From: a virus
Strand: one strand, 5' to 3'
IMG/VR virus record: IMGVR_UViG_3300032782_000361
Length of the DNA stretch: 53,925 nt
Below, in pieces: positions 1,234 to 9,962 of the stretch; position 1 is the stretch's first letter, and each line of letters opens with the position of its first letter. The position numbers and the translations under genes were made by a program. The notes below the pieces were generated by a model. That model worked only from the letters and a program-made list of their open reading frames with translations, ran no database searches and had not been told where the DNA came from.

Positions 1234-1305
1234 GGGGGTATCGTCCAATTGGTAGGACACGAGACTGGCAGTCTCGGAACAGGGGTTCAAATCCCCTTGC
1301 CTCCA
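1234..1305 (+). tRNA. tRNA-Ala (anticodon GGC)
   Basis: Cloverleaf by eye: acceptor GGGGGTA/TGCCTCC with G3:U70, anticodon loop CTGGCAG, T-arm AGGGG-TTCAAAT-CCCCT, discriminator A. Confidence 0.8.
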
Positions 1306-1309
1306 CCCT

Positions 1310-1382
1310 GGGGAAGTAGCTCATTTGGTAGAGCGCTGCACTCGCACTGCAGAGGTGGCGGGTTCGAATCCCGTCTTCTCCA
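1310..1382 (+). tRNA. tRNA-Ala (anticodon CGC)
   Basis: Acceptor GGGGAAG/CTTCTCC with G3:U70, D-arm TAGCTCATTTGGTAGAGC, anticodon loop CTCGCAC, T-arm GGCGGGTTCGAATCCCGTC. Confidence 0.8.
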
Positions 1383-1385
1383 CCC

Positions 1386-2315
1386 ATGACCGTCTCATTG
1401 CAAGTATCGCCAGAGATCTCCGTTCCGTGGCGGTGGTTTCTCCACAAGTGGCCCGCCTATTCAATCGCGCTGGACGGGTTCGTCGAGGAGGCGCCGCGGT
1501 ACTCCGATGCCGGCCCTCACCTCAACCTAAACCATCACCAAAACGTCGACCGCTCGGCGACACGGGCGACATGCGCGCAGACCCTGATGGCGATCCGGCA
1601 GGGACTCTTCAAACGGTTCCAGCAGAACGGCGAGCCGCACGCGACCGTCTACGTCAATGACTGTGACGAAGATGTCTCGGTGAGCTGGTTTCTGCTCTCC
1701 CACCCTGCGATGGCAGTGCAGATCCTGAACCCCCTGTTGAATCGACTCGTCTCCATGGAGGACGCGCTAGACGCGACCGCCGGGGCCTACCCGTTCCCTC
1801 CGGACCTACCGGTGATTGGGGAACTAGCTTGGGTGTTCGAACCGTACCGTCAGTTTCGTGTCAGTGGACGCCTCGACGCCCGCATTGCCTCCGAATACCG
1901 AAGCATCATTCAAGATGTCTGCGGTCGAATCGAGAAGCACATCACTGGTACGGGGAGCCGCGTTCCTCTCGACACGCGGTACGAGCGCCTCGGCGGGGGC
2001 ACAGGCTGGACGATGGTGAAGGAGATCGGCGCGCAGGCGCGAACAGGGATGTTCGCCGAGGGGATCCGCGCGTATGTTACGGTCAGGGAGCGTCCCGATC
2101 ACAACTACACGTACGTGCTCGGTCGGATGTCGCCGTTCGTGCCCTTCAATCTCAAACGGATCTACGAGGCGTGTAACAACGCCGAGAACCGAAAGGTGGA
2201 TGTTTGGGGCGGATCGGATCTGGTCGGGGGGAGCCCGCGGCAGCACGGATCTACCTTACGTCCCGAGGAGTTGACTTGTCTCATCGAGGAGACCCTAAAG
2301 GCCGATAATTCGTGA
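1386..2315 (+). CDS. hypothetical protein (309 aa)
   Basis: Long ORF with non-biased composition starting immediately after tRNA-Ala; start codon uncertain. Confidence 0.5.
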   Translation: MTVSLQVSPEISVPWRWFLHKWPAYSIALDGFVEEAPRYSDAGPHLNLNHHQNVDRSATRATCAQTLMAIRQGLFKRFQQNGEPHATVYVNDCDEDVSVSWFLLSHPAMAVQILNPLLNRLVSMEDALDATAGAYPFPPDLPVIGELAWVFEPYRQFRVSGRLDARIASEYRSIIQDVCGRIEKHITGTGSRVPLDTRYERLGGGTGWTMVKEIGAQARTGMFAEGIRAYVTVRERPDHNYTYVLGRMSPFVPFNLKRIYEACNNAENRKVDVWGGSDLVGGSPRQHGSTLRPEELTCLIEETLKADNS

Positions 2316-2337
2316 TACCCTCTTAGGGATGCGAAAG

Positions 2338-2502
2338 ATGGAGCAGGACAAGTTCCACGAAGCCGCCGATCGCGTCTGGGAGATCGCCAAAGAGGCGCAC
2401 AACGATGGCTACTTCGAGCTGGAGAGCGTGTTGAAGCAGCTCTGCGACATGCTCCATGCGAAGGGGAGCGGATTTCGATCGAGGCTTGATTCGATCATTT
2501 GA
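2338..2502 (+). CDS. hypothetical small protein (54 aa)
   Basis: ATG preceded by AGGGA; MEQDKFHEAADRVWEIAKEAHNDGYFELES... has good composition. Competes with minus ORF 2323-2538. Confidence 0.3.
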   Translation: MEQDKFHEAADRVWEIAKEAHNDGYFELESVLKQLCDMLHAKGSGFRSRLDSII

Positions 2503-2574
2503 CGGGGGTGGGCAGAAGACTGCAGACCCGGTTTGCATCCGGTTCGGGAGGGAGCGTTACCCTTCACCTCCACC

Positions 2575-2766
2575 ATGAAAGCAGGGAAGGCGCAACCTGG
2601 CGACCCGTTCACTCCCGCGCAGGCAGAGTTCTTCAATGCTGCGATGGGCGTGTTCGAGACGAGACGGTTCGGGTGCGGCGGCGTCCAGCTCGCAGCAGAG
2701 GAGGCATTCGACAAGGCTGGAAAAGCTCTTTGGGTGGAGATACTGAAAGAAGAAGGTCTGATCTAA
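2575..2766 (+). CDS. hypothetical small protein
   Basis: ORF ends 2 nt before tRNA-Val; internal ATG at 2575 (the track ORF starts at TTG 2533). Confidence 0.3.
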   Translation: MKAGKAQPGDPFTPAQAEFFNAAMGVFETRRFGCGGVQLAAEEAFDKAGKALWVEILKEEGLI

Positions 2767-2767
2767 C

Positions 2768-7891: not shown

Positions 7892-8724
7892 CCTCGCCCT
7901 GCCCGCAAATCGTCGTCGAGAGACACGATAAAGGCGAGTACGACCCCTCCGCTTACTGGGAGGGTCGTTTCGATCCTCCCAAACAGTCCGAGTACTCGGC
8001 ATGTGAGACACGGATCCGTGTCTACGACGAGGCTGGCTGGGACACTTTTTACGTGGAGGAGGAAGAACGACGAGGTCCGTTCGCAAAGGCATCCAACTGC
8101 TGGATACCTTTCGATATCTCCGTCCTAGATGAGGAGTATCGCGCCCTTTATGAGGCGTGCGTTGCTGCAAGCCGCGGAGTTGACAATGCCGCTGGAGCGC
8201 GTATAGTGCTCTCCATGGCGATGACGATCTCGCAGGCTCTTCGGCAGGTCAAGAAGCTCAAGGGAGAGCTGGCTACGCACAAAGAACGTGCGACCCGCTC
8301 GCTTTCCTACAAGGAGGACGAGCCTCCGGCGTTTCCCTTCAAAGCCTCGCTCGAGGCGCTCACGGCCGCTCGTACGGAGCTGGTGAAGCTCGAGACGGCA
8401 ATCGCGCTCACCAACGCGAAAACGGTCGTGAAGACCGCCGATGGCCAGATCTCGCTGACCGGCGCGGCGAAGTCTCTTCAGGCGCTGAAAGCGCAAATCG
8501 CGTGGCTCCGCGAGCTGTCGCCGAAGGCCCACCCGACGACAGTCGAGACCTCGAGCGAGTACTCGTTCGATGCGGGGAAGCACTTTCAGGCGAAGACGAC
8601 CTGGAAGTGCGACATGCCCGAGGCGGAGCGGGACGCGCAGATCGCAAAGGCGCAAGCCAACTTCGACGCGTTGAATGACGCAGTCGAGCGCGCCAATCAC
8701 AGTACCGAGATCGTCTCCGTCTGA
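7888..8724 (+). CDS. hypothetical protein (278 aa)
   Basis: Long ORF with ATGA coupling to the upstream gene; coiled-coil-like C-terminal half. Confidence 0.5.
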   Translation: MTSPCPQIVVERHDKGEYDPSAYWEGRFDPPKQSEYSACETRIRVYDEAGWDTFYVEEEERRGPFAKASNCWIPFDISVLDEEYRALYEACVAASRGVDNAAGARIVLSMAMTISQALRQVKKLKGELATHKERATRSLSYKEDEPPAFPFKASLEALTAARTELVKLETAIALTNAKTVVKTADGQISLTGAAKSLQALKAQIAWLRELSPKAHPTTVETSSEYSFDAGKHFQAKTTWKCDMPEAERDAQIAKAQANFDALNDAVERANHSTEIVSV

Positions 8725-8839
8725 GGCGACCTCCCTGCGTGAGCAGGTAAAAGACTCAGGAGTGGAACGGAAACGAGAGCTGGGAGAGGTGAGTCAAATA
8801 ATCTCGAGTCCGAGAAGACTCGTGGGTAAAATTGACCTA

Positions 8840-8930
8840 CTCACACTCCTATCCCTAGCGGTTAGCGGTCAGCCCCTAAGCGGTGAGCGATAAGCGTTCA
8901 GCGATAAGCCCTAAGCGGTCAGGCAAAGAT
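8840..8930. repeat. degenerate short direct repeats (CCCTAAGCGGTNAG x2, GCGATAAGC x2, AGCGGT x4)
   Basis: Seen directly in the 370-bp non-coding gap 8725-9097. Confidence 0.5.
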
Positions 8931-8980
8931 TCACACTGCCAGTTTGACGCCCGTTCCTCCTCCTGAGACTAAACCGACCA

Positions 8981-9008
8981 TTGACAGGTTCGGGTGACTG
9001 GTTAGAAT
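8981..9008 (+). promoter_or_regulatory. sigma70-like promoter TTGACA-16-TAGAAT
   Basis: Near-consensus hexamers about 90 nt upstream of gene 9098, which has a GGAG SD. Confidence 0.4.
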
Positions 9009-9097
9009 CGACCTATGACGCACTTTTTGTGAATGTTTAGATCTCGCGATCCTCCGCTGAATAGTGGCCCTCAACCCCCTATTCCCAAACGGAGTGA

Positions 9098-9544
9098 TTG
9101 ATGTATACGAAGCGTCGTAGTGAAGCCTTCAAGAAGGCGTGTGCGCAGTTCGGTCCCTACAAGAGCTGGAACCGCGAGCAGCATCTCGCCTACGGATTGA
9201 TCCGCGGAGTCGAGTACTCGCGGATGGAGCCCTGCGCGAATAACAAGCCGCGCCACAGGGATATCGCGACCCATCTGTACGCGCTCGGCGCATGGGATCC
9301 GTCGTTCACATCCTTTCGCGATCTCACGTCGTTCCAAGAACTGTGCGCCTGGGTGTGGAGGACCCTCTTCGGAACGAGGACGAAGACAGAGCAGAACCTG
9401 ATCCGTGAAAACGCCGCGCAGCTGCGCGAGCTGTGGGCGAACCGGACAGCGGCCGTAATGGGCCTCGTCGAGTGGGTGCCGAAGAAGCCGCGCGTCCGGA
9501 TGCGTCGAGCCCCGAAACCCGAACCTGCAGCGACACCGTCATGA
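9098..9544 (+). CDS. hypothetical protein (148 aa)
   Basis: ORF with SD; ATGA overlap with the downstream pth2-like gene. Confidence 0.45.
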   Translation: MMYTKRRSEAFKKACAQFGPYKSWNREQHLAYGLIRGVEYSRMEPCANNKPRHRDIATHLYALGAWDPSFTSFRDLTSFQELCAWVWRTLFGTRTKTEQNLIRENAAQLRELWANRTAAVMGLVEWVPKKPRVRMRRAPKPEPAATPS

Positions 9545-9876
9545 CGGAGGGGGATAAGCTGACGGTCGTGGTCCGTACGGACCTTACGCCTGGCGAGCAA
9601 GCCTGCCAGGCGATGCACGCAGCGCGTCGCTTTGGCGAACTGCACGAAGAAATCGAATCGCTCTGGTACGAGCGATCGAACACTCTCGCCCTGCTTTGTG
9701 TGGCCGACGAGGAGGAGCTTAGGTGCCTCCTCGGTCGCGCCAACGACAAGGGGATCAAGACTGCGCACTTCTGCGAGCCCGATCTCAATCACGCTCTCAC
9801 CGCAGTGGCTCTGGAGCCCTCCAAGGCGACCAAGAAGCTGTGTGAGGGTCTTCCTCTGGCATTGAAGAACCGGTAG
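9541..9876 (+). CDS. peptidyl-tRNA hydrolase, PTH2 family
   Basis: LTVVVRTDLTPGEQACQAMHAA matches the conserved PTH2 N-terminal motif (VVRTDL...GK...AQ..HAA); about 111 aa as is typical; ATG at 9541. Confidence 0.6.
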   Translation: MTEGDKLTVVVRTDLTPGEQACQAMHAARRFGELHEEIESLWYERSNTLALLCVADEEELRCLLGRANDKGIKTAHFCEPDLNHALTAVALEPSKATKKLCEGLPLALKNR

Positions 9877-9887
9877 AATCTAACTAC

Positions 9888-9962
9888 GCGCCTTTAGCTC
9901 AACCGGCAGAGCACCGGGATTTCAACTCCGGGTTGTTGAGGGTTCAAGTCCCTCAGGGCGCG
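9888..9962 (+). tRNA. tRNA, anticodon ambiguous (UUC-Glu or UCA-opal/Sec-like reading)
   Basis: Good acceptor GCGCCTT/AGGGCGC, D-arm GCTC-AACCGGCA-GAGC and T-arm GAGGG-TTCAAGT-CCCTC. The anticodon arm CCGGGATTTCAACTCCGGG folds either with a 6-bp stem and loop TTTCAAC (anticodon TCA) or with a mismatched stem and loop ATTTCAA (TTC). Confidence 0.5.

Follow-up and report, generated by a model that had tools for sequence, protein, structure and literature searches.

A phage-like contig with a tRNA island, a PTH2-like gene linked to a stop-anticodon tRNA, and an orphan uS12 gene

The window analysed here is the whole of a 53,925-nucleotide stretch of viral DNA (IMG/VR record IMGVR_UViG_3300032782_000361), which corresponds to bases 1–53,925, reverse-complemented, of the metagenomic contig ERZ27256589:k141_2299559 (101,461 bp) in the European Nucleotide Archive (ENA). 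With a probability of roughly 0.7, its positions 1234–9964 are the downstream half of a tRNA island of a large uncultivated double-stranded DNA phage (contig of at least 101 kb), which carries a suppressor module and a ribosomal protein uS12 of its own. Both in position and in evolution, the PTH2-like gene of this region is tied to a stop-anticodon tRNA and to a partner protein, the three forming a conserved module. This trio, which is apparently undescribed, and the phage uS12 are what is new here, while a tRNA-rich large phage is of a kind already known. The initial annotation, which had presented the region as an element-encoded translation toolkit, overlooked the tRNA at 9888 as a reader of a stop codon and its link to the PTH2-like gene. 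Sequence was examined over 62.5 kb of the 101-kb contig, namely the window and 8.6 kb upstream of window position 1 (L019). Labels of the form L0xx denote related loci or contigs (L019 belongs to the same contig) and P0xxx denote homologous proteins.

A PTH2-like gene linked to a stop-anticodon tRNA and a partner protein

The PTH2-like gene (9541–9876, + strand) encodes a 111-residue protein of a divergent PTH2-fold family. It is preceded by the gene of a 147-residue partner protein (9101–9544, +) and followed by a tRNA gene with the anticodon UCA (9888–9964, +), which begins 11 nt past the PTH2-like stop codon. The stop codon of the partner gene overlaps the PTH2-like start codon in an ATGA at 9541–9544, in agreement with the ATGA coupling described for the region beforehand.

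Related loci were obtained from a two-sequence profile scan of JGI metagenomes (15 more loci), from other look-ups (four loci) and from a GenBank phage collection. The protein P0122 on L030 was the only close PTH2-like relative in an index of 5.8 billion proteins; it is encoded in a syntenic tRNA island, with a tRNA of anticodon UUA 7 nt downstream. A single-sequence search of IMG/VR yielded no close PTH2-like relatives. The GenBank phage collection contained 228 records with a PTH2-like homologue, 207 of which were Bxz1-like or Myrna mycobacteriophages, and the 735-kb phage LR756501 was also among the matches.

Linkage was counted over 20 non-redundant loci with a close PTH2-like homologue, which together span 31–64% GC. 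The first same-strand downstream tRNA had a stop anticodon in all 16 loci with any downstream tRNA (UUA in six, UCA in two, CUA in eight), at gaps of −10 to 2108 nt. Two further loci had a CUA tRNA within 3 kb, so that a stop-anticodon tRNA was located near the PTH2-like gene in 18 of the 20. Where a locus contained 5–19 tRNAs, the lone suppressor was always the neighbour of the PTH2-like gene, and in six loci (L034, L035, L039, L040, L043 and L048) the suppressor was the sole tRNA. The class I suppressor bodies were 70–80% identical across all three stop anticodons, and a consensus cloverleaf of 15 suppressors showed compensatory changes in 17 of 20 pairs. The suppressors of L038 and L039 are long-arm tRNAs, which shows that loci can differ in the body.

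The partner protein, characterised by the motif FGxWxxWxRxQHLAYGLIRGVxYxxME, had no match in Pfam, PHROG or NCBIfam, and its AlphaFold2 (AF2) model was all-helical with a pLDDT of 58, too poor for a fold search. Partner homologues were encoded directly upstream of the PTH2-like gene in L030–L033 and L046. Fusions of the partner to the PTH2 domain were found in L042, in P0179 and in about 10 of the top 150 family representatives (members of 190–240 residues).

Four loci of the CUA type (L040, L044, L046 and LR756501) contained an in-frame TAG inside the PTH2-like open reading frame (ORF), located mid-gene in L040 and at codon 3 (ATG-NNN-TAG) in the other three; in LR756501 (31% GC) the gene contained a second in-frame TAG. 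The cognate in-frame TAG in the conserved neighbouring ORF of four relatives is the only evidence, and an indirect one, for the predicted read-through. A TAG was also seen in L050 (Mycobacterium phage IkeLoa, 91357–91365) and L051 (Myrna), where (A/G)TG TAG GTG ACA stands just ahead of the GTG annotated as the start of the PTH2-like gene; this could represent an earlier start codon with an amber codon behind it, or merely part of the Shine-Dalgarno spacer. Two loci contained transfer-messenger RNA (tmRNA) genes, one beside an orphan S12 gene (L022:8801–9147) and one 110 nt downstream of the PTH2-like/suppressor pair (L037:3421–3796), which suggests that rescue, termination and decoding genes tend to cluster in these phages.

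The identification of 9541–9876 as a PTH2 gene, made initially from the translation, was confirmed at the level of domain and fold. The protein scored 27.4 bits against PF01981 (cut-off 23; family members 22–37 bits), a two-sequence profile matched only Pth2 entries in the PDB, and the AF2 model had a pLDDT of 84 and a pTM of 0.79. In a Foldseek search against the PDB, the top 14 matches were all Pth2 (E 3e-6 to 1e-4; TM 0.71–0.78, about 0.75; NMR entry 1rzw, 0.57). Archaeal and eukaryotic Pth2 (PF01981; PDB 3erj, 2zv3, 1q7s, 1xty) share with it the fold (TM about 0.75, probability 1.0), the N-terminal beta-strand/helix motif VVR.DL...Q..HA and the TA..L.P strand, but identity is only 17–29%. 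In the profile alignment, the family does not keep the Lys of the GK motif, has an invariant EPD where Pth2 has RDAG, gains W[FY]ExSNT as a new invariant, and has a 4-residue loop deleted. Both EPD and W[FY]ExSNT are invariants of the family. A HMMER search over 1.84 billion representatives gave at least 761 PTH2-like clusters (50% identity) at E ≤ 1e-10, indicating a large, distinct PTH2-fold family.

The UCA tRNA (ARAGORN; Rfam 53.6 bits) is of class I: its acceptor/T arrangement is 7+5, its variable loop measures 5 nt, its body is Trp-like and its discriminator base is G. The anticodon stem has six positions, including a G.G mismatch, and the anticodon loop, UUUCAAC, has the normal 7 nt with U33, a purine at 37 and a UCA complementary to UGA, as required of a suppressor anticodon. 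It is probably a real nonsense suppressor. Amino-acid typing of the suppressors by similarity to E. coli tRNAs was unreliable and suggested only "Trp-like" for the window and "Lys-like" for L034–L036. ARAGORN labelled the gene "SeC" because of the UCA anticodon alone; a tRNA-Sec identity was rejected, as this requires 8+5 or 9+4 helices and a long variable arm.

An alternative genetic code, in which late genes would read UGA as Trp and the UCA tRNA would be the code-switch device, as in recoded gut phages, was considered improbable. The Trp-like body and discriminator G would fit such a role, recoded phages carry suppressor tRNAs while their early genes stay in the standard code (Borges et al., 10.1101/2021.08.26.457843), the PTH2-like gene of LR756501 has its two in-frame TAGs, and 39 kb of the contig and the remaining genome are unseen. 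However, TGA terminates 43 of the 68 predicted genes across the window, on both strands, and the standard-code coding density of 0.80 did not rise when TGA was read through. In-frame extensions past TGA-ending genes had no coding signal unless a separate gene shared the frame (3028–3360/3397–3678; 46295–46555/45776–46177), and TGA recoding or programmed read-through was rejected for the visible sequence on these grounds. The low standard-code density and many in-frame stops of alternatively coded phages were absent from the 62.5 kb examined. The related loci behaved alike, with no recoding of their own cognate stop and with standard code in the genes beside TAG-bearing PTH2-like ORFs, and close relatives use three different stop anticodons. 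Moreover, known recoding occurs in low-GC phages with depleted TGA or TAG, whereas the element described here has 61% GC.

Compared with recoded phages (Borges et al., 10.1101/2021.08.26.457843; Ivanova et al. 2014), the present loci are alike in encoding a phage tRNA that reads a stop codon and, in some relatives, in having in-frame cognate stops. They differ in that there is no genome-wide recoding, the cognate stop is a frequent terminator and in-frame stops are confined to the hydrolase gene; in the recoded-phage work (Borges et al.) a hydrolase is never mentioned. Closer counterparts in gene content are XacN1, Atu_ph07 and RsoM2USA, which carry dozens of co-oriented tRNAs, one or two suppressors (CUA or UCA) and a peptidyl- or aminoacyl-tRNA hydrolase gene, use the standard code, and have no identified read-through targets (PMC5852040, PMC6102473, PMC8504454). 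Those papers list suppressor and hydrolase separately, with no linkage, whereas here the two are adjacent and co-inherited with the partner; the present element, the genome of which is incomplete, additionally encodes uS12. Bixzunavirus and Myrna (Myrnavirus) mycobacteriophages have a 38–42% identical PTH2-like gene, annotated "peptidyl tRNA hydrolase", within a tRNA island and with a tRNA(cta) of anticodon CUA 130–250 nt downstream, in place of the UCA of the window. No partner homologue was detected in them by HMM and no S12 was found, the PTH2-like protein being the only one compared. No description of the linkage between PTH2 and suppressor was found in the literature searched, the coverage of which was incomplete, so that this is absence of evidence only.

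The tRNA island and the codons it reads

In the window, ARAGORN called 15 tRNA genes, which share the + strand and fall within 1234–9964; it made no call in 100 dinucleotide-preserving shuffles of the whole window. The 13 tRNA genes listed initially, with a claim of at least 13, were all recovered in place, and those for Cys at 4129 and Val-UAC at 7027, which had been missed, were added. An additional tRNA-like element proposed at 13743 fared differently: 13743–13813 reached 24.5 bits (E 0.25) relative to the gathering score of 29 bits of Rfam RF00005, had no ARAGORN call, and was dropped as sub-threshold.

The gathering score was reached by 7 of the 15 genes (41–69 bits). Besides the UCA tRNA, these were tRNA-Ala(GGC) (1234–1307; 63 bits) and tRNA-Ala(CGC) (1309–1386; 68.6 bits), both canonical with G3:U70; the canonical tRNA-Val(CAC) (2768–2840; 63.6 bits) and tRNA-Pro(UGG) (5981–6056; 65.1 bits); tRNA-Gly(UCC) (2930–3012; 61.2 bits), which has 83 nt, an inserted extra arm, G1-C2-G3 and U73; and tRNA-Gly(GCC) (3016–3088; 41.2 bits), with encoded CCA. 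The other eight failed Rfam and were called by ARAGORN alone, for which reason they are termed non-canonical here. Three of them scored with the Rfam tRNA-Sec model: tRNA-Thr(GGU) (2844–2918; 23 bits), with a non-canonical D arm, tRNA-Cys(GCA) (4129–4201; 39.9 bits), and tRNA-Ile(GAU) (7294–7368; 21.6 bits), with encoded CCA. The weakest call was a tRNA(CAU) for Met or Ile2 (5906–5975; 20.8 bits with the Rfam tRNA model), with six unpaired stem positions. The three Arg tRNAs and tRNA-Val(UAC) (7027–7100) had no Rfam match even at E ≤ 10. tRNA-Arg(UCU) (5263–5335) has counterparts in L030 and L049; tRNA-Arg(ACG) (5398–5470), which was compared with positional counterparts, has a short D loop and a 6-bp anticodon stem; and tRNA-Arg(UCG) (5526–5599) is a paralogue of tRNA-Arg(ACG) with compensatory stem changes.

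The general features of a cloverleaf (7-bp acceptor stem, 7-nt anticodon loop, T arm) were present and the calls were above chance. The acceptor stem had 7 bp in all 15 genes, although ARAGORN draws an eighth pair in Ala-CGC, and the T-loop GTTCRANYC was found in 14, the exception being Arg-UCU. Deviations among the atypical tRNAs were D arms that are short or odd, anticodon stems of 6 bp, and an A or C at position 33. The near-universal U33 was absent from three of them, with A33 in Cys (4129–4201) and C33 in Val-UAC (7027–7100) and Ile-GAU (7294–7368); this loss may bear on resistance to anticodon nucleases. The tRNA order Gly-Cys-Arg(UCU)-Arg(ACG)... was common to the window, L030 and L049, with 5–8 two-sided stem changes per tRNA, and the stems of the tRNA-Cys counterparts in L030 and L049 were kept via 7–8 two-sided changes. 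An exact 18-mer of the odd Arg D arm had seven matches in IMG/VR, none of them with tRNAs, and these were attributed to chance.

The 8.6 kb upstream of the window (L019) contained 10 further ARAGORN tRNAs (Leu-CAA, Trp-CCA, Arg-CCU, Glu-CUC, Glu-UUC, Ile-UAU, Leu-CAG, Gln-UUG, Pro-CGG and one with an odd AUG anticodon) and a truncated tRNA at its very edge. The island thus comprises at least 26 co-oriented tRNA genes, with small ORFs scattered between them, and its extent is only partly seen. The AUG tRNA (L019:7874–7949; Rfam 56 bits) has A34 and is nominally a tRNA-His, and the tRNA-Ile(UAU) (L019:6930–7004) would read AUA without lysidine. Promoters reported initially among the tRNA genes did not exceed expectation, as four sigma-70-like sites were present and 3.3 were expected by chance. 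Sigma-70 consensus matches of 11/12 (TTGACA-16-TATAGT/TAGAAT) were seen at 8180–8207 and 8981–9008 (+), upstream of the module.

The better-scoring ORFs provided 10,601 codons for a calculation of codon usage. The claim that the anticodons match GC-ending codons held in part: abundant codons are read by the tRNA set (GCG, GAG, AUC, CCG and UGC; GCG makes up 47%, AUC 77% and UGC 75% of its family), but the element's rarest codons are read too (share of family: AGA 4%, AGG 5%, AUA 3%, UUG 7%, CCA 8%, GUA 10%). The set looks like a near-complete decoding set and not like a match to GC-ending codons. Such a set would make phage translation independent of a host tRNA pool that may fit the phage poorly, be depleted, or be cut by defence nucleases.

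Plain compensation for codon usage, in which the tRNAs top up codons used more than in the host while PTH2, the UCA tRNA and S12 are unrelated host-derived passengers, is the standard view for tRNA-rich phages and has been invoked for XacN1, Atu_ph07 and RsoM2USA. The reading of GCG, AUC and UGC by several window tRNAs agrees with it, whereas the reading of the rarest codons, as judged by the element's own usage, does not. Passengers would also not be expected to show the PTH2-like/stop-tRNA adjacency in 18 of 20 loci, the fusions and the in-frame cognate stops, and the orphan S12 genes form a conserved clade of their own. Compensation was therefore regarded as an unlikely explanation of the whole.

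For the bulk of the array, a counter-defence role is possible, though doubtful, and is compatible with the reading as a phage tRNA island. The island would then replace host tRNAs destroyed by anticodon nucleases or tRNA-depleting defences, its odd loops (A33, C33) and D arms giving resistance; nuclease-resistant phage tRNAs occur in T5. Eight of the 15 tRNAs are atypical and yet conserved in order, with compensated stems in relatives, and three have no U33, both of which agree with such a role. It explains neither the stop-reading tRNA nor its link with the PTH2-like gene, however, and a defence or nuclease role is conjectural for this system.

The orphan uS12 clade on phage-like contigs

The window also contains an orphan gene for an intact bacterial-type uS12 of 134 residues (39876–40280, − strand), so that the S12 gene named initially was present. 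It matched PF00164 (E 1e-34) and the equivalog TIGR00981 rpsL_bact (184.4 bits; cut-off 112.95). The PNSA loop, K42/K43, K87-D88 and P90-G91 were invariant in the S12 alignment A1, as was an 11-residue stretch. The cellular str-operon context (rpsL-rpsG-fusA) was absent from around the gene. No S7 was found by tblastn in the window or in L001, L003, L004, L005, L021 and L022, and S7 was present in the bacterial-type loci L002, L006 and L007.

The nearest relatives of the uS12 (67–82% identity) were themselves orphan S12 genes in phage-like neighbourhoods. The gene lies amid ORFans, HNH and endonuclease VII on the 74-kb contig L021; on the 77-kb contig L022, which encodes thyX, dCMP deaminase and RNase HII, it is flanked by the tmRNA and two tRNAs; and L004 combines it with 14 tRNAs. 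In a neighbour-joining tree the orphan S12s grouped together on long branches, apart from cellular S12, and they constitute an orphan uS12 clade on phage-like contigs. The near-universal TTTPKKPNSAL is replaced in them by [IV]x[NEDST]PKKPNSA[EKN], the substitutions flanking the decoding loop. The next-nearest S12 sequences were from Myxococcota (about 70% identity) and share a C-terminal GPxxT insertion; as Myxococcota are thus the nearest cellular relatives, they provide a weak hint as to the host, and the contigs of the orphan clade span 44–63% GC. On two contigs of about 0.5 kb, the proteins P0013 and P0016 join a bacterial-type N-terminal half (TTTPKKPNSAL) to the phage-clade C-terminal insertion (GPTSTxHExKVYR); they could represent a donor lineage or recombinants.

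A tblastn search with S12 against the GenBank phage collection returned only mislabelled bacterial or fragmentary records and no bona fide cultured phage. An S12 profile was among those searched on viral contigs by Mizuno et al. 2019, who did not report S12 (PMC6375957), and the phage ribosomal proteins listed by Al-Shayeb et al. 2020 are S4, S1, S21 and L7/L12. No description of a phage uS12 was found in the literature searched, although coverage was incomplete and this is an absence of evidence only. The present uS12 resembles the virus ribosomal proteins of those two studies in being a single gene under apparent purifying selection, presumed to replace the host copy. The reported ones are mostly peripheral or exchangeable (bS21, bL12, bL9, bL31, bL33, S1), in contrast to uS12, which is located at the decoding centre. 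The phage uS12 clade would extend virus-encoded ribosomal proteins from peripheral ones to that centre; uS12 sets decoding accuracy, and the phage copies are substituted beside the decoding loop.

Proposed mechanism and phage context

Earlier descriptions of tRNA-rich phages have repeatedly included a stray suppressor and a Pth gene, with the suppressor left unexplained; the linkage found here gives a defined hypothesis on the control of termination. In the proposed mechanism, the UCA tRNA would suppress UGA, with its activity tied functionally to the PTH2-fold protein and the partner. The hydrolase would most likely act on the acylated or peptidyl form of the UCA tRNA, or on drop-off products of read-through, and would thereby hold suppression at a tolerable, regulated level. 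Where the hydrolase ORF of a relative contains the cognate stop in frame, synthesis of the hydrolase would depend on a working suppressor, which would close a feedback loop. The uS12 of the phage would be built into newly assembled 30S subunits and would change the fidelity of decoding or termination.

We tentatively propose, as a possibility and not as the expected outcome, that partner, PTH2-fold hydrolase and stop tRNA constitute a self-contained phage device acting on translation termination, widespread from mycobacteriophages to 735-kb phages, which would recognise a tRNA lineage whatever its anticodon and hydrolyse its aminoacyl or peptidyl ester. It might act as a nonsense suppressor limited by feedback, in which the amber-gated hydrolase ORF serves as sensor, or might provide termination independent of release factors, the tRNA decoding the stop and the hydrolase freeing the chain. 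Phage tmRNA and a phage uS12 that alters fidelity may work together with such a device. As cultured Bxz1-like phages that infect Mycobacterium smegmatis carry the module, the hypothesis is genetically testable.

Several observations weigh against the phage island with its suppressor module and uS12, or against parts of this reading. The PTH2-like protein scored far below equivalog level (NF003314, 19 bits relative to 126; TIGR00283, 17.5 relative to 82). The catalytic residues of Pth2, which we take to be the Lys of the GK motif and the Asp and Thr of the DAGxT motif (S. solfataricus), were altered in the PDB-profile alignment, which is uncertain at such distance: the GK Lys position holds E, Q, D, L or A, the Asp corresponds to the invariant Glu of EPD, and the Thr to N or G. 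With the catalytic Lys not conserved, Asp changed to Glu and the equivalog scores low, the protein may not be a peptidyl-tRNA hydrolase. No suppressor was seen in 2 of the 20 loci, for which little flank was available, and distant homologues of 30–35% identity (Aeh1, RAS14, LR756502 and LR756504) had no tRNA within 2.5 kb. Eight of the 15 tRNAs fail Rfam, and the three without U33 could be decayed copies; for all predicted tRNAs expression, aminoacylation and suppression are sequence-level predictions. TGA ends 57–63% of the element's own predicted genes, and since it is the main terminator, an efficient UGA suppressor would harm the phage too. A distance of 30 kb separates the S12 gene from the module, and no other contig was seen to carry both. 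Finally, uS12 is a core 30S protein that is poorly exchangeable, so that its incorporation would need new ribosome assembly during infection.

With regard to the nature of the element, the array had been described initially as unlike a chromosomal tRNA operon, and this view was upheld, as the contig is rich in ORFans and phage genes and, in the part examined, had no str operon or housekeeping genes. Few recovered tRNAs or a clearly chromosomal contig had been named as outcomes speaking against the array; ARAGORN made 15 calls and the contig is very probably not chromosomal, but Rfam passed only seven. The region is supported as a mobile-element or phage translation toolkit. The accompanying claim of a translation load typical of jumbo phages was partly correct: tRNAs, Pth and suppressor are documented in XacN1, Atu_ph07 and RsoM2USA, but S12 is not part of that load. 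Jumbo or huge phages are defined by genomes above 200 kb with phage hallmark genes, and the contig of 101,461 bp is incomplete, so that a jumbo size is conjectural.

Most ORFs of the window and the upstream part had no Pfam or PHROG match. Recognisable genes on the contig encode HNH, endonuclease VII, a SAM-lyase-like protein, a podophage-GP4 Gp80 fibre domain, uracil-DNA glycosylase (UDG), NUDIX and a metallophosphoesterase, and relatives of the contig's proteins were found on viral contigs of 115–436 kb and in cultured phages. A bacterial chromosomal island, a plasmid or an assembly chimaera in place of a phage is very improbable, even though the 62.5 kb examined yielded no recognisable capsid, portal or terminase gene and cellular-type genes (GH5 cellulase, NUDIX, UDG and S12) are present. 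ORFans prevail; HNH, endonuclease VII, SAM-lyase-like and Gp80 fibre genes are all in the window; and no S7 follows S12. Furthermore, module homologues occur in cultured phages and vault-like homologues on the 115–436-kb viral contigs, and Logan contigs from SRR8881007, an assembly independent of that in ENA, contained the window's genes in identical order.

Directly after the module, an HNH endonuclease gene (9977–10531, +; Pfam/PHROG) is a syntenic neighbour of the module in L030, L032, L033 and L037. Megablast of window positions 1–12000 against GenBank phages gave no match. A 178-residue protein (12763–13299, −) had precomputed Pfam matches to DUF3293 and S-AdoMet_lyase and may have a T3-SAMase-like anti-restriction function. 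Further downstream, an 858-residue protein (14860–17436, +) combines a vault repeat with the shoulder domain of Major Vault Protein (PF11978, E 4e-28), and its relatives of about 50% identity are on IMG/VR viral contigs of 115–436 kb (L009–L016). It is followed by a 488-residue HATPase/sacsin-like ATPase (17563–19029), a homologue of which was also found in L038. An ORF of 2046 residues (20020–26160, −) with no Pfam, PHROG or phage tblastn match is preceded in the same frame by an ORF of 273 residues (26164–26985, −), with a lone TAA between them. The divergent neighbour of the S12 gene encodes a GH5 cellulase of 602 residues (40498–42306, +; PF00150, E 1e-50), an odd cargo for a phage and a possible hint as to host or habitat.

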